A program made the position numbers and the translations under genes. Under the pieces are notes generated by a model. That model did not search any database, had not been told where the DNA came from, and worked only from the letters and a program-made list of their open reading frames with translations. From an uncultured Candidatus Saccharibacteria bacterium (GTDB lineage Bacteria; Patescibacteriota; Doudnabacteria; UBA920): DNA of 64,000 nucleotides. Shown in pieces: positions 1,441 to 61,353 of the stretch (position 1 is the first letter of the stretch; each line of letters opens with the position of its first letter). The stretch spans positions 26,804 to 90,803 of the forward strand of contig CAZFQP010000002.1 of the NCBI GenBank assembly GCA_964520505.1, read 5' to 3'.

Positions 1441-1869
1441 CTAGAAAGAATCTTCAACAACATTCATTAATATTTTAGCACACTTAAACGATTTGTCAAC
1501 CTCACTGTATTCCGCCACATAAACGTCTATTTGTGGCCTTAGGCCGGCCAGTTTCGGATTTCTCAACAAAAACAGCTTGGCCGCACTCAATAGTTTGGCT
1601 TGTTTCGACCAATTAACCGCTTCTTGTCCGCTACCAAATTTATTAAACCCCGGCTTTCTGGTTTTAACTTCCACAAAAGCCAAATGGTCTTTACCTTGGG
1701 CAATAAAATCTATCTCCCCTCTCCTCAGGCCCTTTTTATTAAATTCATTTTTGGCGATGATTTTATATCCTAACTTTTCATACTCTCTTTGTGCAAATTC
1801 CTCGCCCAGCTGGCCAAGAGATTTTGGTTTTGCCGGGATAGCCGGTTTGGGTTTAAAAAAATTGAACAT
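1441..1869 (-). CDS. YraN-family (UPF0102) endonuclease-like protein
   Basis: 142 aa; 'GEIDFIA...VEVKTRK' core typical of the YraN/UPF0102 family; N-terminal basic extension. Confidence 0.5.
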   Translation of the reverse strand: MFNFFKPKPAIPAKPKSLGQLGEEFAQREYEKLGYKIIAKNEFNKKGLRRGEIDFIAQGKDHLAFVEVKTRKPGFNKFGSGQEAVNWSKQAKLLSAAKLFLLRNPKLAGLRPQIDVYVAEYSEVDKSFKCAKILMNVVEDSF

Positions 1870-1877
1870 AAAAATTT

Positions 1878-1948
1878 CTACTAAATACTAAAAAACTAAA
1901 TTACTAAACCAGCTATTTTCGTACTTTCGTTATTTTAGTATTTAGTAG
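1878..1948. repeat. AT-rich intergenic element with 16-bp terminal inverted repeats (CTACTAAATACTAAAA...TTTTAGTATTTAGTAG), copy 1
   Basis: perfect 16-bp TIRs; copies at 2357-2428 and 11131-11229. Confidence 0.7.
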
Positions 1949-1951
1949 AGG

Positions 1952-2344
1952 CTACTTCGGTAAGTATTTTAATTTTTGTTGCTCCTTTACCCAAACAGTT
2001 TTTTCTTCACCGTAGTGTTTTATGGTTTTTACCGCCAGCCAGACCAGCCAGACCAACCCGACTAAAATAATTAACCAGTTGGCAAAATAACTGCCAAATA
2101 AAGTAATATTTTGCGCCCTAAACTCATACCACACCATTTCCAAAATACCAATGGTCAACAATGCGACATAAAATTTCCCGCGATATTTTTTGTCAGCCGG
2201 AGTTGGCGCCATAACGCTGGAAATTTTTAGCACAATGGCAATTAACACCAGCACTCCCCCGGCCATTAACGCCAGCTTGTCTTTGGCAACAACAGGATTA
2301 ATTTGAAACAAATATTGAGATGTTAATAAATTTTTTATTGTCAT
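1952..2344 (-). CDS. hypothetical membrane protein (3-4 TM)
   Basis: 130 aa, hydrophobic helices; no recognisable motif. Confidence 0.4.
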   Translation of the reverse strand: MTIKNLLTSQYLFQINPVVAKDKLALMAGGVLVLIAIVLKISSVMAPTPADKKYRGKFYVALLTIGILEMVWYEFRAQNITLFGSYFANWLIILVGLVWLVWLAVKTIKHYGEEKTVWVKEQQKLKYLPK

Positions 2345-2356
2345 AATAAATTATTA

Positions 2357-2428
2357 CTACTAAATACTAAAAAAACTAAACTACTAAACCTGCTTTTTTC
2401 GTACTTTCGTTATTTTAGTATTTAGTAG
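2357..2428. repeat. AT-rich TIR element, copy 2
   Basis: ~90% identical to copy 1. Confidence 0.7.
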
Positions 2429-2433
2429 AAGTT

Positions 2434-2973
2434 TTATTTCTCAAATAAAACAGCATAATGATACCCGTCGGTGTCCAAGTCTTTTATTTTACGCAAACCG
2501 GTCTGCATAAGCATTACCTCCACTTTCTGCTGGTCTATGCGCTTGTCTATTGCGGGACCAAACGGAGATGCGGTTTTTTTCCATTCCACAATTACCACAC
2601 GACCGGGAACTTTTAATATTCGATAAATATTTTTAACCAGCTGTTCTTTGTTGGAAATTTCGTGCATAATGTTTCCGACAATTACCATATCGCATGAGTT
2701 GGGAGCAATATCCAGAATGGGTTTAGCTAAATCTGCCTGCACCACTCGCACATTTTTATAACCAAACTGTCCGGCAATGGAAACCGTAGCGGCCAACTTT
2801 TCTTCCATTACATCTACCGCCAACACTTCTCCGGTGGAACCAACCATTTGCGCCGCCGGCAAAACGTAAAACCCGTTGCCGCAGCCCAAATCGGCCACCA
2901 CTTCGCCTTGCATCAAGCCGGTTTGCGCCACTATTTCACTTGGATTTAAAAATTTTGACATTTTGTTTTTCAC
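2434..2973 (-). CDS. class I SAM-dependent methyltransferase
   Basis: 179 aa; 'VADLGCGNG' glycine-rich SAM-binding motif I followed by an acidic motif II ('VLAVD'); the ORF-track start (GTG) is probably replaced by the ATG at M5. Confidence 0.6.
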   Translation of the reverse strand: MKNKMSKFLNPSEIVAQTGLMQGEVVADLGCGNGFYVLPAAQMVGSTGEVLAVDVMEEKLAATVSIAGQFGYKNVRVVQADLAKPILDIAPNSCDMVIVGNIMHEISNKEQLVKNIYRILKVPGRVVIVEWKKTASPFGPAIDKRIDQQKVEVMLMQTGLRKIKDLDTDGYHYAVLFEK

Positions 2974-3045
2974 TAATGCACTAATTTTACGAATTACACT
3001 AATGCTAGTATTGGTAATATTAGTAGAGATTCGTCAATTAGTGGA
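2971..3045. repeat. second intergenic repeat family, copy 2
   Basis: see copy 1. Confidence 0.55.
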
Positions 3046-3055
3046 TAATTAAATT

Positions 3056-3307
3056 TTAGGCTTCCAACTTTACGTTAACTTTCTCTGCCAACTTCTTAAA
3101 CCATTGGTCATGCCTGTCCAGTCTCGCCCTAACCATAACCATTTCTGTGTTCCAATCTTTGGTCTGCTTAACCACTTGATCTAAAGCGTTAGTTTGAGAA
3201 GCCAACACCTCTTTAATAGCAGCCGTTTCAGATTTAATTTCTTCAATATCCGCCCGTGTTGCTAAATTATTTATAGCCTTATCAAAATGTTCTTGTGTTA
3301 AGTCCAT
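3056..3307 (-). CDS. hypothetical coiled-coil protein
   Basis: 83 aa, helical/charged; no motif. Confidence 0.35.
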   Translation of the reverse strand: MDLTQEHFDKAINNLATRADIEEIKSETAAIKEVLASQTNALDQVVKQTKDWNTEMVMVRARLDRHDQWFKKLAEKVNVKLEA

Positions 3308-3370
3308 AAAATTGTCTTTAATGATACCTAAAAAATGTTTTGAATTATCTATCTAAACTCTTTATATAGA

Positions 3371-3721
3371 TTAACCAGCCCAATAGTTTGGCCCCGAACT
3401 CCAGACGTTGAATAAAAATACAAATAAAACGATACCTGCTAAATAAAATCCCCAATAATATATAAGCTTTAAAGTTCTTTCGCCATCATTTGAATTTAAA
3501 CCTAAGCGCCACTGGTAGAAAAGCCCGAAGGCAATAGATATAATCAATCCTGAAACTAAAAACCCAAACACTTTAAAATTTAATAATTCAGCCAAAGGAC
3601 TACTAATAGAAGAGAGAAACACTGCCAATATCATAGCAAATAAAATAGAGGCAACTCCGCCAAATAATCCAACAAAAAACCCATTTACGCTGGCACTGAT
3701 TTTAGAAACGCTTCCAGACAT
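3371..3721 (-). CDS. hypothetical membrane protein
   Basis: 116 aa, 3 predicted TM helices. Confidence 0.4.
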   Translation of the reverse strand: MSGSVSKISASVNGFFVGLFGGVASILFAMILAVFLSSISSPLAELLNFKVFGFLVSGLIISIAFGLFYQWRLGLNSNDGERTLKLIYYWGFYLAGIVLFVFLFNVWSSGPNYWAG

Positions 3722-3745
3722 ACTTTAAAAATTAAAATAATTAGG

Positions 3746-4549
3746 TCAATTAGAAATTTCTTGGTAGAGTTTTGTTATTGCCGTGGCTTTGCCACCGGTT
3801 GATGTTTCTACAAGTGTGCCGTTGATTTGCAAAACCCCTTCTTCTTCCAATTCATTTACAAACTTGCCTTGTTCCAAAAACTTTTTTAAAACATTTTCCG
3901 GTTTAACGCCGATTACTCCGTTTAAAGCGCCGGTCATACCCGTGTCGGTAATATAGGCAGTGGCCTTAGCTAAAATTCTGGCATCGGCTGTTGGGACATG
4001 GGTGTGAGTGCCGGTTAAAAAACTCACTCGGCCGTCCAAATAATAACCCATGGCAACTTTTTCGCTGGTCGCTTCCGCGTGGAAGTCCACAATTATTATA
4101 TCACCTTTTTGCGCTTCCTGCGCTAACAGTTTATCAATAGCCAAAAACGGGTTAGCAATTTCACCGTCAAACTGATTTTCCATAAAAACCTGGCCGTTGA
4201 GGTTAACAACCAAGAATTGATTACCCTGTTTGGCAAAACGATAGTAGCCAAACCCGGGAAATTGGCCAACAAAATTGGCCGGACGGATTAGTTTAGGATA
4301 TTTTTCAAAACATTCCGCTGAAAGATGATGTTTGTTGAATATATGATTGCCGGAAGTAAAACAGTCTATGCCTAAATTATCAATATCCGCCAAAGTAGAC
4401 GGCGTCACTCCTTTTCCGTGGGCTAAATTTTCCACATTCACGATTACCGCATCTGGCTGATACTCACTTTGCCATTGCGGCAAGACCTCACGCAATATTT
4501 TGCGCCCCGGTTTCCCTACTACATCGCCGATGAAAAGTATTTTTGCCAA
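3746..4549 (-). CDS. ymdB: YmdB-family metallophosphoesterase (2',3'-cyclic-nucleotide 2'-phosphodiesterase)
   Basis: 267 aa; N-terminal 'ILFIGDVVGKPGR...NVEN..HG' calcineurin-like motifs of the TIGR00282/YmdB family; TTG start; lies immediately downstream of rny as in Bacillus. Confidence 0.8.
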   Translation of the reverse strand: MAKILFIGDVVGKPGRKILREVLPQWQSEYQPDAVIVNVENLAHGKGVTPSTLADIDNLGIDCFTSGNHIFNKHHLSAECFEKYPKLIRPANFVGQFPGFGYYRFAKQGNQFLVVNLNGQVFMENQFDGEIANPFLAIDKLLAQEAQKGDIIIVDFHAEATSEKVAMGYYLDGRVSFLTGTHTHVPTADARILAKATAYITDTGMTGALNGVIGVKPENVLKKFLEQGKFVNELEEEGVLQINGTLVETSTGGKATAITKLYQEISN

Positions 4550-10396: not shown

Positions 10397-11122
10397 TTAA
10401 TTCTGGTCAATTAGCAAATCCGGTCTTCTCTTCTTTGTCCGTTTAACAGCTTCTTCTTTTCTCCATTCTTCAATATTTTTATGGTGTCCGGTTAATAAAA
10501 CCTTTGGCACTTTGTATTTTTTGTTTCCCAATTTCTTATTTCTAATTTCTAATGTTTCTGGTTTAGTATACTGCGGGTACTCCAGCATTGCTTCTGAAAA
10601 AGATTCTTTGTCTACCGATTCATCTTTTCCCAAAATACCCGGCCTCAGCCGTATTACCGCCTCAGCTATCACCAAAGCCGGCAATTCCCCGCCCATAAGC
10701 ACATAATCGCCAATGCTAATTTCTTCGTCTACAAATTGCCTGACCCGTTCGTCAAAACCTTCATACCTGCCGCAGACAAAAATTAGATTATCATACTTGG
10801 AAAGCCTTTGAGCTTCTTTTTGAGTAAACGGCTTCCCTTGCGGAGTTAACAAGATTATCCTTAATCCTTTATCCTTTATCCTTGAGGAGGCTGTTTTTAT
10901 GGCTTTGCACAAGACGTCGGCTCTCAACACCATTCCCACTCCCCCGCCATAAGGCCGGCCGTCGACAATCTGCCGCTCGGTCAAACCAAAACTTCTTAAA
11001 TTAACAGCTTTAAGATCTAATAGTTTAAGTTTAATCGCACGTTTAACAATACCAAAACTGTCCACAAAATTTTCAATAAATTGCGGAAAGAGAGTGATAA
11101 TTTTTATATTTAACTTTTTCAT
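10397..11122 (-). CDS. trmD: tRNA (guanine37-N1)-methyltransferase
   Basis: 241 aa; SPOUT/TrmD motifs ('GRPYGGGVGMVL'); in-frame heptamer-repeat inserts (ATCCTTT x3; AATTTCT array). Confidence 0.85.
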   Translation of the reverse strand: MKKLNIKIITLFPQFIENFVDSFGIVKRAIKLKLLDLKAVNLRSFGLTERQIVDGRPYGGGVGMVLRADVLCKAIKTASSRIKDKGLRIILLTPQGKPFTQKEAQRLSKYDNLIFVCGRYEGFDERVRQFVDEEISIGDYVLMGGELPALVIAEAVIRLRPGILGKDESVDKESFSEAMLEYPQYTKPETLEIRNKKLGNKKYKVPKVLLTGHHKNIEEWRKEEAVKRTKKRRPDLLIDQN

Positions 11123-16960: not shown

Positions 16961-18829
16961 ATGAATGCAATCAGTGAACAATTAAAAAATAAGGTTTCAA
17001 GCCTGCCCAAACGGCCGGGCATTTACCAATTCCTCAACGACAAAGGGAAAATTTTGTACGTAGGCAAAGCCAAAAATTTGCAGAGCCGGGTGAGGCAATA
17101 TTTTGGCCATGACGACACCAGAGCGCAAATCCCTTTTTTAATGGCCGAGGCCACGGACATAAATTACACTGTGGTAAATAGCGAATTGGAGAGCGCGTTT
17201 TTAGAAAACACGCTAATTAAACAATACAGTCCCAAATATAATATAGATTTAAAAGACGATAAAAATTACGCCTTTATAAAAATTGATTACTCCACCCAAA
17301 TCCCCCAAATCGGCTATGCAAGAAAAGTAGAGACGCCTACAAGCTACAAACTAAAAGCTAAAAGCTTATTTTTCGGCCCCTACTCCGCCGCTTACAAAAT
17401 CCGCAACACGCTAAACCTGGTACGGAAAATTTTTTCTTTTTGCGCCAACGACAAAGTAAGCAACCGTCCCTGCTTCTACTATTATATGCACCGCTGCCCG
17501 GGAGTATGCATTGGGAAAATCAGCCTGGAAGAATATAACCAACACCTAGAGAAAATAGCCAAATTTTTGCAGGGCGACACAGCAGGCGTCTACAAAGAAA
17601 TTAAAAACGAGATGCAAAAAGCAGCCGCGAAAAAGAGATTCGAAACAGCCGCGCGCCTGCGTGACCAGTTAAAGGCTTTGGAACTGCTCACGGAAAAACA
17701 AAATGTAATTTTAGCTAAAAAAGTTGACTGGGATATTATTTCCCTGGCTGCTGCTGAAAACCACGCCTGCATTAACTTGTTTAAAGTCCGCGGTGGCAAG
17801 CTATTCGACAAGGAAAATTTTATTTACCAGCTCCCTGCCCTCTGGCGGCAGGACGGCCACGAAGCAGCGGCATCGGAAATTATAAATACTTTCTTACAAA
17901 AATATTACTTGGAAACCAGCAGCCTACCCAAAGAAATTTTTCTGCAGTATCCGATTGACCGCGAAGACGATGTTGCCGGAATAATTTTTCAACATACCAA
18001 AAAAAGAATAAAAATTTCCGTCCCGCAAAAAGGCCAAGTAACAAAACTAATAACTCTCGGCACGGCCAATGCAGATGAATATTTAAAAAACTGGATGTCT
18101 GCCCAAGCCGGCCATTTGGACAAAATTAATGCCTCCTTAGCTCAGCTGCAGCAAGTCTTAAAACTAAAAAGCCTGCCCAAACGCATTGAATGCTATGACA
18201 TTTCCAACATTCAGGGCACTAACCCTGTTGGCAGCATGGTAGTTTTTAAAGACGGGCTGCCGGCCAAGTCTGAATACCGAAAATTCAAAATTTACGGCAA
18301 AACCACGCCGGATGATTTTGCCATGATGATTGAAATGCTAACCCGCCGCTTTGCCCGCCTGAAGAAAAAAGATAAAAAATTTCCCAAGCCAGACCTGATT
18401 GTTATAGACGGTGGCAAAGGACAGCTTAATGCCGCTCTGTCTGCCCTACAAGCCACTCCCTACCTGCCTGGCGGACAGGCAGGCAAACTACAACCTATGC
18501 CTATTATTGGTCTGGCAAAGAGGATTGAGGAAATATTTCTACCAAACCAAGATCAACCCATAATTTTGAATCACGACCAGCCGGGACTTCAACTGCTCCA
18601 GCGCCTGCGTGACGAGGCTCACCGTTTTGGCATTACCTTTCACCGTTCCCTGCGCAGTAAGCAAGCAGTCCATTCAGCTTTAGATGATATCCCGGGCATT
18701 GGACCAAAAACAAAAAAATTGCTTAAAACCAAAATTGGAACTGTGGAAGAGATAAAAAAAAGAACCGAAGGTGAGCTAGCTTCGCTGGTTGGAATTAAAT
18801 TAGCTCATTTGATAAAAGAAAGTTTATGA
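16961..18829 (+). CDS. uvrC: excinuclease ABC subunit C
   Basis: 622 aa; GIY-YIG ('GIYQFLNDKGKILYVGKAKNL'), UvrBC-interaction and C-terminal HhH regions. Confidence 0.9.
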   Translation: MNAISEQLKNKVSSLPKRPGIYQFLNDKGKILYVGKAKNLQSRVRQYFGHDDTRAQIPFLMAEATDINYTVVNSELESAFLENTLIKQYSPKYNIDLKDDKNYAFIKIDYSTQIPQIGYARKVETPTSYKLKAKSLFFGPYSAAYKIRNTLNLVRKIFSFCANDKVSNRPCFYYYMHRCPGVCIGKISLEEYNQHLEKIAKFLQGDTAGVYKEIKNEMQKAAAKKRFETAARLRDQLKALELLTEKQNVILAKKVDWDIISLAAAENHACINLFKVRGGKLFDKENFIYQLPALWRQDGHEAAASEIINTFLQKYYLETSSLPKEIFLQYPIDREDDVAGIIFQHTKKRIKISVPQKGQVTKLITLGTANADEYLKNWMSAQAGHLDKINASLAQLQQVLKLKSLPKRIECYDISNIQGTNPVGSMVVFKDGLPAKSEYRKFKIYGKTTPDDFAMMIEMLTRRFARLKKKDKKFPKPDLIVIDGGKGQLNAALSALQATPYLPGGQAGKLQPMPIIGLAKRIEEIFLPNQDQPIILNHDQPGLQLLQRLRDEAHRFGITFHRSLRSKQAVHSALDDIPGIGPKTKKLLKTKIGTVEEIKKRTEGELASLVGIKLAHLIKESL

Positions 18830-28225: not shown

Positions 28226-29311
28226 ATGAGCTTTCAAATCGGCATCGTCGGCCTGCCTAATGTCGGCAAATCAACCCTATTTAATGCCATTACCAAAAGT
28301 AAGGTAGAAGCAGCCAACTACCCTTTTGCCACTATCGATCCTAATGTGGGAGTAGTCGCCGTGCCGGACGAACGCCTGGCCAAACTGGCAAAGTTAGAAA
28401 ATAGCGAAAAAATCGTCCCGACTACCATTGAATTTGTAGATATTGCCGGGTTGGTTAAAGGCGCCTCTACCGGCGAAGGTTTGGGTAATAAATTTTTAAG
28501 CCACATTCGCGAAGTGGACGCGATTTTGGAAGTGGTGCGCGTATTTGAAAATAAAGATATTATTCACGTAAACGGCTCGGTAGACCCGTCGCGCGATATG
28601 GAAACCATTGCCATAGAACTCCAACTGGCCGACCTGCAAAATGTGAATAATCGCCTAACAACCATAAACAAACAGGTAAAAAGCGGCGACCGAGACGCAA
28701 TTGTAAAAAAACAAGTTTTGGAAAAATATAAAGTGGCTTTGGAAAAAGGCGAAATGGCCGGCACTGTGCAGTTGACCGATGAAGAAAAAGAACACAGCAA
28801 AGAAATAATTTTGTTGACCAACAAACCGATGATGTATGTGGTAAACGACGAATTTAATTTGGAACAAAAAAAATTCGCGTCGGAAATTTCAAATTCTAAA
28901 TTTCAAATTTCAAATCCAATACCAATCGACGCAAAAATAGAAAGCGAACTGTCGGAACTGGACGACGCCGAAAGAGCGGATTATCTTAAAGAACTTGGAC
29001 TGCCCGAGTCAGGCTTAGACAAAATTATTAAACAAGCCTACAAAACTTTGGGACTAATTACCTTTATTACCGCCGGACCAAAAGAGTCCAAAGCCTGGAC
29101 CTGCCCGGCTGGTTTTAAGGCGCCTCAGGCCGCAGGAAAAATTCATACAGATTTTGAAAAAGGATTCATTCGCGCCGAAGTTATTCAATGGGATAAACTC
29201 CTGGAAGCCGGTGGTTACGGTGAAGCCAGAAATAAAGGCTGGCTTAGAACCGAAGGGAAAAATTACACCATCCAAGACGGCGACGTCGTCCACTTCCTGT
29301 TCAATGTGTAG
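28226..29311 (+). CDS. ychF: ribosome-binding ATPase YchF (Obg-family GTPase-like)
   Basis: 361 aa; 'GIVGLPNVGKSTLFNA' P-loop, TGS-like C-terminus 'KIHTDFEKGFIRAEV'; contains an in-frame AAATTTC heptamer array (encoding SEISNSKFQISN). Confidence 0.9.
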   Translation: MSFQIGIVGLPNVGKSTLFNAITKSKVEAANYPFATIDPNVGVVAVPDERLAKLAKLENSEKIVPTTIEFVDIAGLVKGASTGEGLGNKFLSHIREVDAILEVVRVFENKDIIHVNGSVDPSRDMETIAIELQLADLQNVNNRLTTINKQVKSGDRDAIVKKQVLEKYKVALEKGEMAGTVQLTDEEKEHSKEIILLTNKPMMYVVNDEFNLEQKKFASEISNSKFQISNPIPIDAKIESELSELDDAERADYLKELGLPESGLDKIIKQAYKTLGLITFITAGPKESKAWTCPAGFKAPQAAGKIHTDFEKGFIRAEVIQWDKLLEAGGYGEARNKGWLRTEGKNYTIQDGDVVHFLFNV

Positions 29312-29315
29312 TTTT

Positions 29316-29354
29316 CCCTCTCCCTGGACGGGAGAGGGATTAAGGGTGAGGGTG
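29316..29354. repeat. GC-rich hairpin repeat (left terminal inverted repeat of the DUF559 cassette; also the ychF terminator hairpin)
   Basis: CCCTCTCCC-TGGAC-GGGAGAGGG then ...GGGTGAGGGTG; reverse complement ~80% identical to 29696-29733. Confidence 0.6.
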
Positions 29355-29356
29355 AT

Positions 29357-29695
29357 ATGCAAAATAAAACACTCATTCCAATCGCTAGAAAACTTCGTAA
29401 ACAAAAAACCCCTGAAGAAGCTAATCTTTGGCAACTTTTGCGTTCCCGACGATTTCTAGGTTATAAATTTAGACGCCAATTTCCAGTTGATAAATATGTA
29501 GCAGATTTTGTCTGCCTCTCAAAAAGATTAATTATTGAATTGGATGGCGGACAACATAATAAAAACCCTAACGATGCAACTCGAGACGAATATCTACAAA
29601 AACAAGGATTTAGAATCCTGCGAATTTGGAATAATGATTTAAATATAAATAAAGAATCTGTCTTAGATAAAATTTTTTATACTTTGAACGAATAG
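29357..29695 (+). CDS. DUF559 (Vsr/MTES-like endonuclease fold) domain protein
   Basis: 112 aa; 'ANLWQLLRSRRFLGYKFRRQFPV..YVADFVC...IIELDGGQH' typical DUF559; AT-rich relative to its flanks. Confidence 0.75.
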   Translation: MQNKTLIPIARKLRKQKTPEEANLWQLLRSRRFLGYKFRRQFPVDKYVADFVCLSKRLIIELDGGQHNKNPNDATRDEYLQKQGFRILRIWNNDLNINKESVLDKIFYTLNE

Positions 29696-29733
29696 CACCC
29701 TCATCCCTGCCCTTCTCCCGTCCAGGGAGAAGG
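29696..29733. repeat. GC-rich hairpin repeat (right terminal inverted repeat of the DUF559 cassette)
   Basis: CACCCTCATCC-CTGC-CCTTCTCCC-GTCCA-GGGAGAAGG; shares the CACCCTCATCC 11-mer with 56720 upstream of tsaD. Confidence 0.6.
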
Positions 29734-29807
29734 ATGGGGCAAAAAACAAAAGACTCTTCCGAACATGGGAAGAGTCTCTTTTGAAAGCGCGCGAAACATT
29801 GCGCGGA

Positions 29808-31620: not shown

Positions 31621-31716
31621 AAATTAAAATGCAAAAATCAAAGTGTAAAATTATTGAGTCCGCCTTCGGCGGACACCTACATTTTTAATTTTGATATTTA
31701 AACTTTAAAATATTTT
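31621..31716 (+). repeat. ~95-bp terminator-plus-promoter module, copy 1 (between ssb and rpsR)
   Basis: ~75% identical to 31953-32049; GC hairpin GTCCGCCTTCGGCGGAC plus T-run, then TTGATATTTAAACTTTA directly before the ATG. Confidence 0.6.
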
Positions 31717-31952: not shown

Positions 31953-32049
31953 AAATTAAAATTGAAAAATCAAAATGTAAAATTACAGATTCCGCCTCCG
32001 GCGGAAACCTATATTTTGCACTTTGATATTTAAACTTTACAATTTCACT
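31953..32049 (+). repeat. ~95-bp terminator-plus-promoter module, copy 2 (between rpsR and efp)
   Basis: hairpin TTCCGCCTCCGGCGGAA plus T-run, then TTGATATTTAAACTTTA. Confidence 0.6.
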
Positions 32050-42978: not shown

Positions 42979-43392
42979 CTAACTTTCTAATTCTCTAACT
43001 CTCTGTATATCAAACTTAATCTGTTTTTTTAACTCTGCCTCATTTTTAAACTTCTTAAATGGCCGAAGGTATTTTATCAAATGCAAAGTAATTTTTTTGC
43101 CGTACAAATTTCCTTTAAAGCCAATTAGGTGTGCTTCTAGTTTTGGCAATCCTTCTTTATCTATAGGCCCTATAATTATCCCCGCGGGATAATTTCTGAT
43201 TTCCAATTTCTGATTTCCAATTTCTGCCATTCCTGCATAAATACCTAATTTTATATTCTGTTTCCTGCGGGAATAGCTTCTCCTGTCCAAATTAGCAGTC
43301 GGAAAACCTAAAAGTCTGCCATACTGCTGGCCTTTAACAACTAGCCCGCTGATGGTTACTGTTTTTCCCTTTTTAGAAGATTTTTGAATCAT
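42979..43392 (-). CDS. riboflavin kinase (monofunctional flavokinase domain)
   Basis: 137 aa; 'TISGLVVKGQQYGRLLGFPTANL' flavokinase motif; contains an in-frame heptamer array (ATTTCTG/ATTTCCA x5); C-terminal 10 aa from the same repeat as the EamA gene. Confidence 0.65.
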   Translation of the reverse strand: MIQKSSKKGKTVTISGLVVKGQQYGRLLGFPTANLDRRSYSRRKQNIKLGIYAGMAEIGNQKLEIRNYPAGIIIGPIDKEGLPKLEAHLIGFKGNLYGKKITLHLIKYLRPFKKFKNEAELKKQIKFDIQRVRELES

Positions 43393-43429
43393 GAATTAAG
43401 AATTATGAATTATGTTTTTCCCTTGATTC

Positions 43430-44383
43430 TTAATTCTTACTTCTTAATTCTGTTTCTTGCTCGGCTATAAACTTTTCCACGTCTAACGCGGCCATACAGC
43501 CCATACCCGCGGCGGAAATCGCCTGGCGGTAGCGAGGATCGTTTACGTCTCCTGCAACAAACACCCCTTCAATGTTTGTTTTTGTACTGTCTTTAACTTT
43601 TACATAACCTTTAGCGTCGGTCTGTATGCCGGCATCGGCAAAAATTTTTGTGGCCGGCGAATGGCCAATGGCCAAAAACATTCCTTGAACCGAAAGCGTA
43701 GATTCAGTGCCGGCAGCGTTATCTTTTATCTTTAATCCTTCCACGGAAGTCTCTCCCAAAACATCCGTCACTGTGACATTGGTAATAAAAGAAATTTTTG
43801 GATTATCCTGGCAGCGCTTTAGCATTATTTTGGAAGCTTTAAATTCGTCGCGGCGATGGACAATGTAAACTTTATTGGCAAACTTGGTTAAAAAGGATGC
43901 TTCTTCCATAGTGCTATCTCCCCCGCCGATTACCGCGACATCTTTGCCTTTAAAGAAAAACCCGTCGCAAGTGGCGCAAGCTGAAACGCCCTTGCCGCGC
44001 AAGCGTTGTTCGTTAGCCAAACCCAGCCAGTTGGCTGTGGCTCCGGTAGCGACAATAACGCTCTTAGCCAAATATTCCCCTTTTTCTGTTTTGACGCTAA
44101 ATGGTTGTTGTTTAAAATTAACTTCGCTGGCGCTTTCGGGTAAAATAACCGTGCCAAACCTTTCGGCCTGCTTGGTCATATTGTCCATAAGTTCCGGGCC
44201 CATAATGCCGTTTATAAATCCCGGGAAATTTTCCACTTCTGTGGTATCCATTAACTGCCCGCCGGGTTTTTGTCCGGCTAATACCAAGGGTTTTAATTCC
44301 GCTCGTGCCGCATAAATGGCCGCGGTTAGCCCGGCCGGACCGGAACCGATGATTATAACATTATATACTTTGGGGTTATTCAT
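43430..44383 (-). CDS. trxB: thioredoxin-disulfide reductase
   Basis: 317 aa; FAD and NADPH Rossmann motifs and redox-active 'CATCDG'. Confidence 0.9.
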   Translation of the reverse strand: MNNPKVYNVIIIGSGPAGLTAAIYAARAELKPLVLAGQKPGGQLMDTTEVENFPGFINGIMGPELMDNMTKQAERFGTVILPESASEVNFKQQPFSVKTEKGEYLAKSVIVATGATANWLGLANEQRLRGKGVSACATCDGFFFKGKDVAVIGGGDSTMEEASFLTKFANKVYIVHRRDEFKASKIMLKRCQDNPKISFITNVTVTDVLGETSVEGLKIKDNAAGTESTLSVQGMFLAIGHSPATKIFADAGIQTDAKGYVKVKDSTKTNIEGVFVAGDVNDPRYRQAISAAGMGCMAALDVEKFIAEQETELRSKN

Positions 44384-53522: not shown

Positions 53523-53638
53523 TTTAGGTTGTAGGTTGTAGGTTGTAGGTTTTTAGCAATCAATCATTAATGCCAAAATTGAACAAAAATATTTTTAAAA
53601 AATCATATCAATCATGTTCAATTTTTTAAATTTTGTCA

Positions 53639-56122: not shown

Positions 56123-56638
56123 ATGGGGAAGACAATTCGCCTTTCATTTTTTGTTATTTTTGCCGCATATTTTATTTCCTGCGCCGCCTCGCCGGCCGAA
56201 TGGCATTTTATAGACGGGGTTAATTTAATTTTTCACGAAGCCGGCCATTGGCTGTTTTGGCCTATGGGAGAATTTTTACATATTCTTGGAGGCAGTTTAA
56301 ATCAAGTTTTAATTCCCCTGCTTATTTCGTTTTACTTTTTTTGGAAAAAACAGCCTGTCTCCGCTTTCGCGGTTTTGCTCTGGGCAGGCCAAAGCCTAAT
56401 AAATATTTCTGTTTATGCAGCCGATGCCACAAAAATGCAATTACCTCTGTTAGGCGGCGATAGTTCCACTCACGACTGGAACTGGTTGTTAATTTACTTG
56501 GGGCAATTAAGGCATACCCCACAAATAGCACAAGTAATAACTGTCTGCGGCTGGCTGGTTCTATTGGCTGGACTTTTTGGGGGCATATATTTTATACTTA
56601 TTGAATCTAAAAAAGTAGACTATGGACAAACTAATTAA
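56123..56638 (+). CDS. membrane protein with HExxH motif (putative zincin-like membrane peptidase, DUF3267-like)
   Basis: 171 aa; 4-5 TM; 'IFHEAGHWLFWP' HExxH within the first TM region. Confidence 0.4.
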   Translation: MGKTIRLSFFVIFAAYFISCAASPAEWHFIDGVNLIFHEAGHWLFWPMGEFLHILGGSLNQVLIPLLISFYFFWKKQPVSAFAVLLWAGQSLINISVYAADATKMQLPLLGGDSSTHDWNWLLIYLGQLRHTPQIAQVITVCGWLVLLAGLFGGIYFILIESKKVDYGQTN

Positions 56639-56765
56639 TCATAAAAAAAATAAAGTAATTCTCGCCAAGCCCTCTCTTCCCCTCGCTCCTGCTCGGGGCA
56701 CTCTCTCCCGCAAAACACCCTCATCCGGCCTACGGCCACCTTCCCCCAAAGGGGGGAAGGAAAAA

Positions 56766-57923
56766 ATGAATGGTCTTTTGGGAGAGAGGAAAAAAGTGAT
56801 TCTCGCTATTGAGACTTCCTGCGACGAGACCGCGGCGGCGGTTTTGGAAATAATCCCTCACCCTACTCTCTCCCGCAAGGGGCGAGGAGGGAATGCGCAG
56901 TGGCCGGAAATTGCCACCTTGTCTTCTGTTGTCAGATCGCAAATTAAACTGCATAGCAAAATGGGCGGCGTAGTGCCGGAAGTTGCCGCCAGGGCGCACG
57001 TAAAAAATATCCGCCCCGTGGTGGAAGCCGCTCTCAAAGCTAGCAGCTATAAACTAGAAGCTATAAGCTATATCGCCGTTACCGCCGGCCCCGGACTAAT
57101 TCCGTCTTTAATTGTTGGCGTTGAATTTGCCAAAGCACTTTCTCTGGCCACCGGTATTCCGCTCTTACCCACTAACCATATGCTAGGACACCTATACTCG
57201 CCTTTTGGGCGAGTAAAATCCAAAATCCAAATTTCCAATGACGAATCACACCCAGAAGGCTGCCTTCTGGGGCAGCCCCAGAAGGCAGCCTTCTTTCCAA
57301 TGATTGCTTTAATCGTTAGTGGCGGACACACGATGATTGTGTTAATGGAAAACGAAAAAAACTATCGGGTGCTTGGACAAACCGTAGACGACGCGGCAGG
57401 TGAAGCATTTGATAAAGTTGCCAAGCTCCTTGGCCTCCCCTACCCCGGCGGGCCGGAAGTTTCAAGGCTGGCTTTGTCCGGCAACCCGGAAGCCATAAAA
57501 TTTCCCCGTCCAATGCTAAATAATAAAAATTATAACTTTTCCTTCTCCGGCCTAAAAACCGCCGTACTGTACTATGTAAAAGATAAGGGATTAGGGATAA
57601 AGGATAAAAATATTGTCAACGATATTTGCGCCTCTTTCCAAGCCGCTGCAGTAGACGTGCTGGTGCAAAAAACTATGCGCGCTGCCAAAGAATTTAAAGC
57701 TAAATCTGTTTCCCTGTCCGGCGGCGTTTCCGCCAATCGCCTCCTGAGAAGTGAACTAGAAGCTATGAGCTATAAACTAAAAGCTAATTTTTTCGTTCCC
57801 CCATTTAACCTTTGTACCGACAACGCGGAAATGATAGGCATAGCCGCGGCCTTTGCCCTGCATAACGGCAAAAAACCAGTGCCTTATAAAAAGGTTAAGG
57901 CGGACAGCAATATGGAATTGTAA
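56766..57923 (+). CDS. tsaD: tRNA N6-adenosine threonylcarbamoyltransferase TsaD (Kae1/Gcp family)
   Basis: ~385 aa from the ATG at 56766 preceded by GGGGGGAAGG. It has 'ILAIETSCDETAAAV', metal-binding 'HMLGH' and 'AGGV' motifs. There are two insertions relative to E. coli TsaD, one of which is a 41-nt perfect palindrome. The ORF-track start at 56622 overlaps the upstream gene and reads through GC-rich repeats, so it is probably not real. Confidence 0.85.
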   Translation: MNGLLGERKKVILAIETSCDETAAAVLEIIPHPTLSRKGRGGNAQWPEIATLSSVVRSQIKLHSKMGGVVPEVAARAHVKNIRPVVEAALKASSYKLEAISYIAVTAGPGLIPSLIVGVEFAKALSLATGIPLLPTNHMLGHLYSPFGRVKSKIQISNDESHPEGCLLGQPQKAAFFPMIALIVSGGHTMIVLMENEKNYRVLGQTVDDAAGEAFDKVAKLLGLPYPGGPEVSRLALSGNPEAIKFPRPMLNNKNYNFSFSGLKTAVLYYVKDKGLGIKDKNIVNDICASFQAAAVDVLVQKTMRAAKEFKAKSVSLSGGVSANRLLRSELEAMSYKLKANFFVPPFNLCTDNAEMIGIAAAFALHNGKKPVPYKKVKADSNMEL

Positions 57924-58276
57924 AATTTGCTAAAAAAATTGTTAGTGCTATAATTTAATTATGCCCAGTAGAGCTACTTTGAAAAATAATTTCAAGATAC
58001 CTCGAACAGTGGCATTAGCAATATTGTTAATATCTTTCTTAGATAATAATTCAAAGTGATTCTACTGGGTATGATTAAATCGGGCTTACAATTTATGATT
58101 TCTTTCTCCTCCTCTTCCTCCTCTAGCCGCAAGGCAGAGTGGGAATTTTAGGTTTATCTAAATTTCTCCCCCGCTCTGCATTTAGAGCGGGTTTTTTGTT
58201 TTCTGATATCTGCCGTAAATATTAAGGTAGGTATGAGGAAAGAAAAATCCTCAAATTCAGGCTTTAAGGAGGCCTT

Positions 58277-58864: not shown

Positions 58865-59121
58865 CGGAGCCCCGGCCTTTCTTTATACTTGCTACTTGCT
58901 ACTTGCTGCTATATAATAAACCTAAGCTTATGTTTCGGCTGTCACCGAAGCGGCGCCAAAAGAACGTCAAATTATTGACTAAGTAGACTTGGCCGGAAGT
59001 TATCCGTAAATAACACAATTAAGTAAATTTGAGATGGCACCGCCCGCGAGGGTTCTCACACCGTATTTAACGGTGTTTTATTTTGCTTAATTCTTAATTC
59101 ATTATTCTTAATTCTAGTATT

Positions 59122-61353
59122 ATGGACTTACCAAAAGCCTACGACCACTCCCAAGTGGAAGATAATATTTACCAAACCTGGTTGGATAGCGGTTATTTTA
59201 ATCCGGACAAATTGCCGGAAAGCGAAAGCCGCGAACCTTTTACCATTTCCCTACCGCCTCCTAATGTAACCGGGGTGCTGCATCTTGGCCACGCATTTGA
59301 AGACACCATTCAAGACACTGTTATTAGATATCAAAGAATGAATGGCAAACGCGCGCTTTGGGTTCCGGGGACTGACCACGCGGCCATTGCGACTCAGGCT
59401 AAATTTGAAAAAGAACACTATAAAAAAGAGGGTAAATCTAGGCACGAATACTCCCGCGAAGATTTTTTCAAGATGATTCAAACTTTTGCCTTAGAAAACC
59501 AAAAAAATATTTTGTCGCAACTGCGCAAGCTTGGACTGTCTATGGACTGGAGCCGCCTGGCTTTTACCTTAGACCAAAACCGGGAACTGGCCGTGAGAAC
59601 GGCATTTAAAGAAATGTTTGACTCCGGGCTTATTTATAGAGGAGACCGGGTGGTTAATTGGGATCCAAAAGGCCAAACCACAGTTTCAGACGACGAAATT
59701 GAATATGAGGAAAATAAAACTAAGCTATACACTTTTCGCTATGCTAAAAATTTCCCCATAGCAATTTCCACAACCAGGCCGGAAACCAAAGTCGGCGACA
59801 CCGCCGTGGCAGTTCACCCCGAAGATGAAAGGTACAAAAAATTTATAGGACAAGAGTTTGACTTGGAATTTTGCGGCACCCCCTTGCATATAATAATCGT
59901 TGCAGACAAAGAAGTAGACCCGGCGTTTGGCACCGGCGCGCTTGGCGTCACCCCGGCCCATAGCGCGGTTGACTATGAAATCGCCCAAAGACATAATTTA
60001 CCGCTAAAAACAGTTATAAACGAATTCGCCAAAATGACTGTAAAAAGCGAGCTGTTGCAGGGCAAAAAAACCTCCGAGGCCAGGCTGATTGTGGCTGACT
60101 GGCTAAGACAACAAGGCTTGATGGAAAAAGAAGAAGACACCACACAAAACCTTTCCAAAGCACAACGCACAGGTGGAGTTATTGAGCCCCTGCCAAAACT
60201 GCAGTGGTTTATTAACGTAAATAAAAAATTTAAAGCCAAAGGAAATAAACTTACAGGCATAAAAGACGGCGAAGAAATAACCCTAAAAGAGTTGATGGTT
60301 CGCGTAGTCAAAAACAAACAGATAGAAATCATGCCGGAAAGGTTTGAAAAAATATACTACCACTGGATTGATAACCTGCGCGATTGGTGTATTTCCAGAC
60401 AAATAATTTATGGGCATCAAATTCCGGTTTGGTATCGCCCTGCCCCTTCCTCCCCTTCTGAGGGGAGGACACAGGAGAGGTCGAACGAAATTTATTGCAA
60501 TATTACTCCCCCAAAAGAAGAGGGGTGGACTCAAGACACCGACACACTGGATACCTGGTTTTCCAGTGGACTGTGGACTTTTTCTACTTTGGGCTGGCCA
60601 AACCAAACCGAAGATTTTAAAATGTTCCACCCGACTTCCGTTATGATGCCGGGCTATGAAATTTTATTTTTCTGGGTCGCGCGTATGATTCTAATGAGCG
60701 GCTTTTTGCTTGGCGATATACCTTTTCATAAAGTTTATTTGCATGGCATTGTTCGCGACAAACAAGGCAGAAAATTCAGCAAGTCCTTAAATAACGGCGT
60801 TGACCCTTTGGAAATGATATCCAAATACGGCACGGACGCGCTAAGGTTCGCATTAGTTTTTGGGGCAGCCCCGGGCAATGACGTTATGTTTGATGAACAA
60901 AAAATCAAAGGTATGAAGCATTTTGCCAACAAGCTTTGGAATATATCGCGTTATATTCTTATGAACATAACAATTTCAAATTCCCAATTTCAAATTTCAA
61001 ATTTGGAGCCACAAACTCAGGCAGATACGGAAATTTTGGCAAAGTTGGAAGCTACCATAAAATCTGTCACCAAAAATTTGGACAGCTATAATTTACACGA
61101 GGCAGCGCAGGAAATTTACCAATTCACCTGGCGCGAGTTTGCGGATATTTATTTGGAAGCTTCTAAAGCGCAGCTTAACAACGAAGAACAAAAAGCTAAC
61201 ACTCAGACCATCTTAACCCATTCGCTGATTCAAATTCTAAAATTGCTCCACCCCTTTATGCCGTTTATTACCGAACATATTTGGGGTCTAATGCAAGAGC
61301 AAGGGCTATTAGATAAAAATGATCTGCTAATAATTTCTAACTGGCCTAAATAA
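59122..61353 (+). CDS. valS: valine--tRNA ligase (short form lacking the long C-terminal coiled coil)
   Basis: 743 aa; 'PPPNVTGVLHLGHAF' HIGH and 'KFSKSLNN' KMSKS; ValRS-type editing-domain and anticodon-binding regions; contains an AAATTTC heptamer array and a GC hairpin in-frame. Confidence 0.85.
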   Translation: MDLPKAYDHSQVEDNIYQTWLDSGYFNPDKLPESESREPFTISLPPPNVTGVLHLGHAFEDTIQDTVIRYQRMNGKRALWVPGTDHAAIATQAKFEKEHYKKEGKSRHEYSREDFFKMIQTFALENQKNILSQLRKLGLSMDWSRLAFTLDQNRELAVRTAFKEMFDSGLIYRGDRVVNWDPKGQTTVSDDEIEYEENKTKLYTFRYAKNFPIAISTTRPETKVGDTAVAVHPEDERYKKFIGQEFDLEFCGTPLHIIIVADKEVDPAFGTGALGVTPAHSAVDYEIAQRHNLPLKTVINEFAKMTVKSELLQGKKTSEARLIVADWLRQQGLMEKEEDTTQNLSKAQRTGGVIEPLPKLQWFINVNKKFKAKGNKLTGIKDGEEITLKELMVRVVKNKQIEIMPERFEKIYYHWIDNLRDWCISRQIIYGHQIPVWYRPAPSSPSEGRTQERSNEIYCNITPPKEEGWTQDTDTLDTWFSSGLWTFSTLGWPNQTEDFKMFHPTSVMMPGYEILFFWVARMILMSGFLLGDIPFHKVYLHGIVRDKQGRKFSKSLNNGVDPLEMISKYGTDALRFALVFGAAPGNDVMFDEQKIKGMKHFANKLWNISRYILMNITISNSQFQISNLEPQTQADTEILAKLEATIKSVTKNLDSYNLHEAAQEIYQFTWREFADIYLEASKAQLNNEEQKANTQTILTHSLIQILKLLHPFMPFITEHIWGLMQEQGLLDKNDLLIISNWPK

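Follow-up and report, generated by a model that had tools for sequence, protein, structure and literature searches.

The DNA analysed was a stretch of 64,000 nt from an uncultured member of the Patescibacteria (contig CAZFQP010000002.1), referred to below as the window. Its tsaD gene contains, in frame, a 41-nt palindrome that is perfect except for the central base, and this element is the main subject here; coordinates of the features are collected in Table 1. The tsaD product matched Pfam PF00814 at 1.8e-89 and solved TsaD structures in the PDB from 5e-74, and a protein 100% identical to the 385-aa product was already on record. Two alternative starts were noted, a GTG at 56796, comparable to orthologues opening with MILAIETS, and an ATG at 56622, which would give 433 aa and run through a GC-rich block at the 5′ end. 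An AlphaFold2 model, with 27 orthologues in the alignment, matched E. coli YgjD (4ydu) with TM-scores of 0.69/0.78. An intein, an intron and translational bypass were considered and rejected, the frame being open and the length change a multiple of three; a pseudogene was likewise rejected.

Palindrome and variable loop of tsaD

The palindrome, AGAAGGCTGCCTTCTGGGGCAGCCCCAGAAGGCAGCCTTCT, matched its own reverse complement at every base except base 21, with arms of 20 nt that were 100% complementary and 1 nt apart. Only one other 20-nt inverted repeat of 100% complementarity was found in the window (n=2), resembling an ordinary intergenic hairpin, and by our own arithmetic (~64000 × 4^-20) about 6e-8 such palindromes would be expected by chance in 64 kb. 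The predicted RNA fold had an energy of -41 kcal/mol (z = -9.1 relative to shuffled sequences). The element was modular and made of sub-palindromes around the centre GGGGC-A-GCCCC. Unit 1 was a 21-nt hairpin, CCCAGAAGGC-T-GCCTTCTGGG, at 57251-57271, with GCAG directly 3′ of it; unit 2 was its reverse complement, CCCAGAAGGC-A-GCCTTCT, at 57277-57294, truncated at its outer end. The two units were thus inverted, separated by a 5-nt spacer and able to form one hairpin, which is the arrangement of a REPIN, an inverted doublet of repetitive extragenic palindromes (REPs).

The palindrome encoded P163-F176 (PEGCLLGQPQKAAF, numbered from the ATG at 56766) and was free of stops in all six frames. When the peptides that it encodes in three frames were concatenated and compared with a protein database, eight candidates shared words with the query and none scored; a peptide such as IQISNDESHPEGCLLGQPQK, if detected, would be proof of translation. 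No intrinsic terminator (a GC hairpin followed by a T-run) was called at the palindrome by the terminator scan, the tail being TTTCCAATG, and the Rfam scan gave no credible family (best E = 0.76, a miRNA hairpin). The palindrome is not an assembly artefact, because the identical 41-mer was present in five other contigs, from two JGI and three Logan (SRA run) samples (L057-L061).

A preliminary description of this DNA, made from the sequence alone, had reported the palindrome, its in-frame position in tsaD and an AAAATCC/AAATTTC heptamer array in the same loop. All three were borne out, the identity of the gene by the Pfam, PDB and AlphaFold2 results and the array by the heptamer run AAAATCC AAAATCC AAATTTCC at 57215-57237. 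In the AlphaFold2 model, the palindrome fell inside a 29-residue loop (residues 148-176) modelled with no secondary structure and with a predicted local distance difference test (pLDDT) score below 50; residues 34-43, which hold a second insertion (site 1), gave the same result. The loop connects the helix with the metal-binding HxxxH motif to the VSGGH strand, is bounded by HMLGHLYSPF and FPMIALIVSGGH, and is about 20 residues longer than in Thermotoga maritima TsaD (6n9a). It is predicted to be disordered and is regarded as tolerant.

Close relatives of this TsaD (65-79% identity) ranged from 343 to 468 residues, with length variation mostly at about five positions, each of which held a different low-complexity peptide in different orthologues. 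The DNA behind these peptides was of two kinds: GC-rich hairpins, read as ...SPSPS...GRGRG..., and heptanucleotide tandem arrays (encoding KSKIQISN, KDKGLKIKD, QATSYKLQAK, NLKSKILNLK and others). In the palindrome-bearing loop, the first array (AAAATCCAAAATCCAAATTTCCAATGAC) was common to the window and to the related contigs L001 and L003, with ~28 nt unchanged in L001 and almost unchanged in L003. Beyond it L001 and L003 had 42 nt more of heptamers, whereas the window had 51 nt with the palindrome, a net change of +9 nt. By this comparison the heptamer array predates the palindrome, and the palindrome is a derived replacement in a loop that had expanded before, because the relatives continue the array where the window has the palindrome. 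The insertion of about 20 aa first described therefore holds for the extra length of the loop relative to T. maritima, but not as a clean insertion, since 51 nt replace 42 nt of an older array.

The palindrome was absent from the nearest orthologues (P0002, P0003, P0004, and P0009), in agreement with the earlier view that it is lineage-specific rather than ancestral. An ancestral, conserved part of TsaD could be argued from the expansion of the loop in most members of the clade. However, the loop sequence differed in nearly every orthologue, the palindrome peptide was found only in the window's species and in a contig (L063) of a metagenome-assembled genome (MAG) from Hainich groundwater, and the 41-mer recurred in the five other contigs, so that an ancestral segment and an artefact both count as refuted and are extremely improbable.

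In a neighbour-joining tree from 316 gap-free TsaD columns, the window paired with P0002, and the Hainich protein with P0003, P0004, and P0009. The sister groups of both palindrome carriers had the heptamer array in place of the palindrome, so vertical descent would require at least two losses. Over ~90 nt directly 3′ of the palindrome, the window and L063 were 83-89% identical, compared with 70.7% over the whole gene and with 67-70% between the window and its closer relatives. A single origin is favored because the window and the Hainich gene share the truncated right end of the palindrome as well as this raised downstream identity, and the most economical reading, which is likely, would be a single insertion that was later transferred by homologous recombination. 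A further loop module of the window, KDKGLGIKD, was 78% identical to L001, 44% to L004 and 39% to L003, a distribution that also ran against the tree.

The palindrome was conserved within the species: L058, a strain whose DNA was 95% identical to the window where the two overlap, kept it at 100%. The two tsaD genes had 51 differences (3.9% divergence), none of them in 57195-57337. This identical block of 143 nt, comprising a hairpin, the array and the palindrome, was flanked by clusters of differences (9/40 nt at 57155-57194 and 15/40 nt at 57338-57377), which are suggestive of recombination breakpoints.

Hairpin unit and Y1 transposases of related genomes

The 19-nt core of the hairpin was scanned against 596 Gb of species-representative genomes, and the 21-nt unit against JGI metagenomes. 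These genome and metagenome contig scans returned no entry for the window's own locus, and most matches were by chance, in high-GC coding DNA. The exceptions were two contigs of the Hainich MAG, labelled 'Candidatus Saccharibacteria' and with a GC content of 0.40-0.52, and another MAG with a 'Saccharibacteria' label (L042), which had one unit. Among viral contigs the 21-nt unit had no match.

In the tsaD of the first Hainich contig (L010/L063), the doublet CCCAGAAGGCAGCCTTCTGGGGAAACCCCAGAAGGCTGCCTTCT occupied the same position as in the window and was truncated at the same right junction (...CCTTCT|TTCC); the loop read HLFSPLR-PEGSLLGKPQKAAF-FPMIALIVSGGH and had no heptamer array. In the second (L067), the hairpin unit CCCAGAAGGCWGCCTTCTGGG occurred four times around a gene for a Y1 transposase: two units formed a 45-nt perfect doublet 14 nt 5′ of the ATG, one lay in frame inside the gene (PEGSLLG), and one lay 8 nt 3′ of the stop. 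An intergenic copy had a TTTTATT tail on one strand. The gene encoded 222 aa with Pfam Y1_Tnp (5.7e-11), and its sole NCBIfam match was NF047646, the REP-associated tyrosine transposase (RAYT), at 2.9e-11. All 371 homologues at E <= 1e-10 contained Y1_Tnp. HxH and Y-x-H-x-N-P motifs (the latter with the catalytic Tyr) were invariant in the family, and several databases, JGI among them, called its members transposases of Patescibacteria or 'REP element-mobilizing transposase RayT'. Three homologues with 62-69% identity (P0130, P0134, and P0138) each had a matching perfect palindrome just 5′ and 3′ of the gene, and the palindrome differed by genome (CCCCTTGATGGCAGCCATCAAGGGG in L068, CCCCAGAGGTCGGCCCTCTGGGG in L069, CCCCAGATGACGGTCATCTGGGG in L070). 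In-frame perfect palindromes of the window's CCCWGAAG type were also present within the genes of P0130 (49 nt) and P0138 (46 nt). From these matches, the ~21-nt unit CCCAGAAGGCWGCCTTCTGGG is placed in a family of perfect palindromes tied to RAYT-like Y1 (HUH) transposases of related Patescibacteria.

These occurrences bear on whether the palindrome arose in place, by replication template switching (fold-back copying) in a low-complexity loop and with no mobile element. Such copying would be expected to give a hairpin followed, across a short palindromic centre, by its exact reverse complement, as is seen here; the palindrome is unique in the window, and L001 and L003 have an unrelated double hairpin of like architecture (CCGCCAGAGGCGG-GT-CCGCCTCTGGCGG) 60 nt downstream. 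However, the 21-nt unit recurs with matching flanks at four places around the transposase gene and at the same tsaD site in a relative, and by our own arithmetic identical 21-mers would originate independently only at ~5e-7 per Mb. Template switching as the sole origin is thus largely refuted, and a very improbable explanation, but it may keep the arms perfect.

Five long palindromes were aligned: those in tsaD of the window and of the Hainich genome, one from a 5′ flank and two from within genes. Both sides had changed at 8/22 stem pairs, and one side alone at 0, as is seen in the compensatory changes of REPINs; 93.6% of cells were paired, a value reached by 0/500 shuffles, in what is a small sample (n=5). 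No G-U intermediates were seen among these stem changes (n=5), an argument for complementarity being maintained in the DNA and not through selection on RNA.

Were the palindrome instead a selected cis-acting element of tsaD, such as an RNA or DNA hairpin serving as a binding, RNase III, translation-pausing or recombination signal, its likeness to the transposase hairpins would be co-option. Such a role would fit the perfect stems kept by two species at 70.7% tsaD identity, where a compensatory swap changed T-A to A-T, and the 0 differences over 143 nt in a strain 3.9% diverged in tsaD. It would also fit a second, compensated hairpin 40 nt upstream, in the codons of the conserved YSPFGRV motif, which in the alignment reads TATTCTCCC-TTT-GGGAGAATA in L001 and L003, with two pairs changed on both sides. 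Against this, neither carrier's nearest relatives have the palindrome, the missing G-U intermediates speak against RNA selection, there was neither a terminator-like call nor an Rfam family, and the same hairpin is found in unrelated contexts. A selected cis-acting element is therefore improbable.

The favored explanation, to which a probability of about 0.65 is given, sees in the 41-nt palindrome a REPIN-like doublet from a REP/RAYT-like system, a passenger that is translated within a disordered loop of TsaD. A Y1 transposase, an enzyme that would cut and rejoin single-stranded DNA hairpins, may have deposited a copy in tsaD, either directly or through homologous recombination with an allele already carrying the palindrome. 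The landing site would have been the hypervariable loop that already held a heptanucleotide array. The copy would have persisted and simply been translated, as PEGCLLGQPQKAAF, because the net change was +9 nt, a multiple of three, the sequence is open in six frames, and the loop is disordered and tolerant. Mobilization by the transposase, the route into tsaD and the neutrality of the peptide are what we infer from these features.

Several observations weigh against this explanation. The main gap is that the transposase link is established in relatives and not in this genome: neither a Y1 transposase gene nor a further copy of the palindrome or of the hairpin unit was found within the 64-kb window. 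A high genomic copy number is a hallmark of REPs, and one locus was seen in 64 kb of the window genome and two in under 14 kb of the Hainich genome. Likewise, no dispersed palindromes were found beyond the transposase gene in 5-20 kb around four loci (19-20 kb at L069 and L070). Binning, together with comparable coverage and GC, is all that joins the two Hainich contigs. The RAYT score of the L067 protein was 43 bits, relative to a curated cut-off of 80. A GTAG/CGTC tag marks most REPs, and none was found next to the hairpins. The palindrome is coding and translated, and related copies lie within the transposase gene, whereas REPINs are extragenic. Finally, no empty site was found among the relatives, which have other sequence at the position, and the insertion is to that extent deduced rather than observed.

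Some of these points would suit a relic end of an IS200/IS605-type insertion sequence (IS), comparable to the miniature palindrome-associated transposable elements (PATE-like), in which the hairpins that bracket the Y1 gene are the left and right ends of an autonomous IS of ~0.8 kb, the tsaD copy being one such end, alone or doubled. Each end of the gene has a hairpin within 8-14 nt, as IS200-like elements do, there are no dispersed copies in up to 20 kb around the transposase genes, and the NCBIfam RAYT score is below its cut-off; P0141 and P0244 both list a longest contig of 78,048 nt and may share one contig. On the other hand, the RAYT model is the only NCBIfam match, the JGI label is RayT, and the tsaD element is an inverted doublet that forms one long hairpin, i.e., the architecture of a REPIN (PMC3116915). 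For the gene-flanking copies, an IS200-like sequence with hairpin ends is a live alternative; as the account of the tsaD palindrome, it is unlikely.

At 880-2060, L003 had another, distinct Y1 transposase, which matched Pfam at 7.4e-14 and the NCBIfam RAYT model at 76.7 bits. It was flanked by inverted AAACGGGGACATGACCCGTTT hairpins and, on its 5′ side, by a triple repeat of GTTAAAAAACGGGGACAT. That its flanks are of the hairpin type in L003's own tsaD was considered and rejected, the flanks being AAACGGGGACATGACCCGTTT-type repeats.

Other repeats in and around tsaD

Table 1. Features of the tsaD region, with window positions, strand and supporting evidence.
Feature	Position	Strand	Evidence and remarks
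5′ GC-rich composite block (56666-56792) between direct repeats	56652..56806	+	sequence; fold z = -3.2
tsaD coding sequence, 385 aa from ATG	56766..57923	+	Pfam PF00814, PDB matches, recorded protein, AlphaFold2 model
Site-1 GC-rich insertion (IPHPTLSRKGRGGNAQ), with second ACTCTCTCCCGCAA copy and imperfect CT-rich/GA-rich hairpin	56853..56900	+	ortholog alignment, pLDDT
Heptamer array AAGCTAT x5, encodes SSYKLEAISY	57037..57072	+	Tandem Repeats Finder (TRF)
9-bp hairpin TACTCGCC-TTTT-GGGCGAGTA	57195..57215	+	codons of conserved YSPFGRV motif, directly 5′ of heptamer array
Heptamer array AAAATCC AAAATCC AAATTTCC AAT.., encodes KSKIQISN	57215..57240	+	TRF period 7; window period-7 enrichment
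41-nt palindrome, read as a probable REPIN-like doublet; unit 1 CCCAGAAGGCTGCCTTCTGGG, unit 2 CCCAGAAGGCAGCCTTCT	57254..57294	.	inverted repeats, fold, relatives
Heptamer array GGATAAG/AAGGATA, encodes KDKGLGIKDK	57577..57608	+	TRF; orthologues with alternative module RSLPTTNYSLQT
Heptamer array AAGCTAT/AAACTAA, encodes EAMSYKLKA	57760..57786	+	orthologues with other heptamer-coded modules
In-frame GC-rich hairpin TCCTCCCC-TTCT-GAGGGGAGGA in valS (PAPSSPSEGRTQERS)	60429..60485	+	fold, nhmmer match to CT/GA hairpin family

The preliminary description had also derived the insertion at site 1 from a GC-rich repeat found again just upstream of the gene. The shared repeat is real, as the 14-mer ACTCTCTCCCGCAA occurred exactly twice in the window, at 56700 and 56865 (0.21 occurrences at <=2 mismatches expected from shuffles; >=2 matches in 3/100 shuffles). 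But the copy at 56700 lies inside the block 56666-56792, between direct repeats of the first tsaD codons, and the derivation from that copy, resting on one exact 14-mer, is unproven. It is weakened because shuffled sequences fold as well as the site-1 hairpin does (z = 0.06), because the strain L058 has three substitutions in the insertion, with the 14-mer broken there by two, and because the position holds nothing in L001 and a different hairpin (CCCTCTCCT-CAAA-AGGAGAGGG) in L003. Site 1 and the valS hairpin were weaker relatives of a profile of CT-rich/GA-rich hairpins, and membership of site 1 in this loose family is plausible and moderately supported by the matches.

The 14-nt direct repeat that brackets the 5′ block (AAAGTRATTCTCGC, at 56652-56665 and 56793-56806) is in frame, its copies 141 nt apart, and the block itself contains the first ACTCTCTCCCGCAA copy and a hairpin, CCTTCCCCC-AAA-GGGGGGAAGG. 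Orthologues had none, one, two or three modules of the form 'K(V/I)ILA...GE.K'. The sequence is compatible both with translation of the block, from the ATG at 56622, and with its being bypassed through a start at 56766 or 56796. The block had CACCCTCATCC and a CT-rich/GA-rich hairpin in common with inverted repeats of ~38 nt around an open reading frame (ORF) for a DUF559 endonuclease-like protein (29357-29692, 112 aa, Pfam 5.6e-39). The whole arrangement covers 29310-29745 of the window, and its repeats contain the hairpins TCCCTCTCCC-TGGAC-GGGAGAGGGA and CCTTCTCCC-GTCCA-GGGAGAAGG, whose loops are complementary; together with the ORF they look like a small mobile cassette.

The hairpin in valS is a further case of an in-frame repeat in an essential gene; the ValRS of L001 lacks it, and those of L003, L004, and L058 have it. 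In the Hainich contig L067, the gene for the NAD-dependent DNA ligase (1764-3956, minus strand) had a long in-frame insertion between zinc-finger cysteines, built of hairpin-like (SSPGKGRVGRGR) and heptamer-like (IESNQKLLINYNS) segments, which suggests that repeat insertions affect many essential genes in the clade. The tsaD genes of L001 and L003 carried an in-frame double hairpin, CCCGCCAGAGGCGGG-TCCGCCTCTGGCGGA, encoding PARGGSASGG, ~60 nt downstream of the palindrome site (L001 ~10605-10640) and absent from the window. Intergenic repeats of 91 nt in the window (31621-31711 and 31953-32043) were tipped by CCGCC-NNN-GGCGG hairpins like this one.

Tandem arrays in the window were concentrated at period 7 (18 arrays, 0.17 expected) and period 14 (12 arrays, 0.23 expected), while the other periods from 3 to 15 gave 0-2. 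Examples are found at 30-56, 10857-10883, 17337-17366, 28884-28915, 43385-43451, 53525-53551, 57047-57072, 57582-57608, 58886-58907, 59086-59115 and 60972-61004. Ten heptamer arrays lay within long ORFs, tsaD and valS included, and the families AAGCTAT, AAATTTC, AAGGATA, and CTTAATT recurred at several loci. In orthologues, different heptamer-coded peptides occupied the same loop positions, with a distribution against the gene tree. No mechanism for the heptamer enrichment was found. Near comparisons are the short tandemly repeated repetitive (STRR) heptamers of cyanobacteria and, in the literature, the TAACTGA repeats of Beggiatoaceae (PMC4679880).

Downstream of tsaD, a 106-nt miniature element (57964-58069) had terminal inverted repeats of ~20 nt (CCCAGTAGAGCTACTTTGAA / TTCAAAGTGATTCTACTGGG) and lay between duplicated TATG sequences (57960-63 and 58070-73); L058 and L004 lacked the element and had a single TATG. 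It was followed by a conserved non-coding stretch (58074-58200), kept in L058, L003, and L004, which ended in a strong terminator-like hairpin (58170-58191 plus a T-run). Its only Rfam match, to anti-hemB, was below threshold (29.7 bits, relative to 49.5), and the stretch may be a small RNA.

A wider reading of all these repeats, which is tentative and on balance doubtful, is that Patescibacteria carry an undescribed REPIN/RAYT-like system whose palindromes are 'coding-compatible', being short and, in the window's type, free of stops in six frames. In genomes as streamlined and gene-dense as these, such palindromes would colonize disordered loops of proteins rather than intergenic DNA, in the transposase gene itself and in essential genes (tsaD, and perhaps valS and ligA), and would form, with the strongly enriched heptamer arrays, interchangeable loop cassettes that move between related lineages by recombination. 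For marker proteins of the candidate phyla radiation (CPR), length variation concentrated in a few repeat-filled loops and incongruent with the gene tree means that such loops should be masked in annotation and phylogenomics. A further question is how RNase III and ribosomes of ultra-small cells tolerate essential mRNAs with perfect 20-bp hairpins.

Comparison with known systems

REPINs are REP doublets that form hairpins and are associated with RAYT transposases (Bertels and Rainey, 2011, PMC3116915; Bertels et al., 2017, PMC5581495). The tsaD element resembles them in its inverted short palindromic units within one long hairpin and in compensatory upkeep of the stems. In a relative, its unit also flanks a Y1/HUH transposase gene for which RAYT is the best curated model, at a score below the cut-off; the family is spread over many related genomes, and each of these has a palindrome of its own. 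It differs in size, being 41-49 nt long with 26 nt between unit starts, where Pseudomonas REPINs have 71-110 nt, and in its host, a member of the Patescibacteria; a literature search found no paper in which Patescibacteria are mentioned along with RAYT or REPIN. By definition, REPs and REPINs are extragenic, whereas here an in-frame palindrome is tied by sequence to hairpins that bracket Y1 genes.

The preliminary description had likened the element to Rickettsia palindromic elements (RPEs). This analogy survives as a functional likeness, that of an in-frame palindromic repeat in an essential gene that is not disrupted, since the insert, itself predicted to be disordered, leaves the ORF intact and the TsaD fold preserved. 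REP/RAYT is the closer family, however. RPEs are ~100-150 bp long, three- to four-fold longer, numerous per genome and restricted to Rickettsia, whereas the tsaD element has 41 nt, is transposase-linked in relatives and belongs to Patescibacteria. Ogata and colleagues are said to have proposed, in 2000, that RPEs are tolerated because the added surface segment suits the fold. RPEs are not known to have an associated transposase, nor to share sequence similarity with the tsaD element.

With the IS200/IS605 family, the likeness lies in a Y1 gene bracketed by subterminal hairpins and in the existence of solo hairpin-bearing derivatives; the difference lies in the tsaD element being a symmetric doublet rather than left and right ends, and in that no target-site or guide-sequence signature was recognized at these hairpins.

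Comparable coding palindromes include the GC-rich double-hairpin elements of fungal mitochondria. The mitochondria of Nematomorpha have coding palindromes of up to 284 bp (PMC6649704). Like the tsaD palindrome, these are long perfect inverted repeats in frame in essential genes, with both arms translated and their perfection kept, but they are organellar, far larger and have no transposase link. The sequence tie to a Y1 transposase reported here makes the origin of such insertions directly testable. As far as we know, in-frame palindromic passengers in essential genes have been described essentially only from Rickettsia and some organelles, and there with no known mobilizing enzyme.

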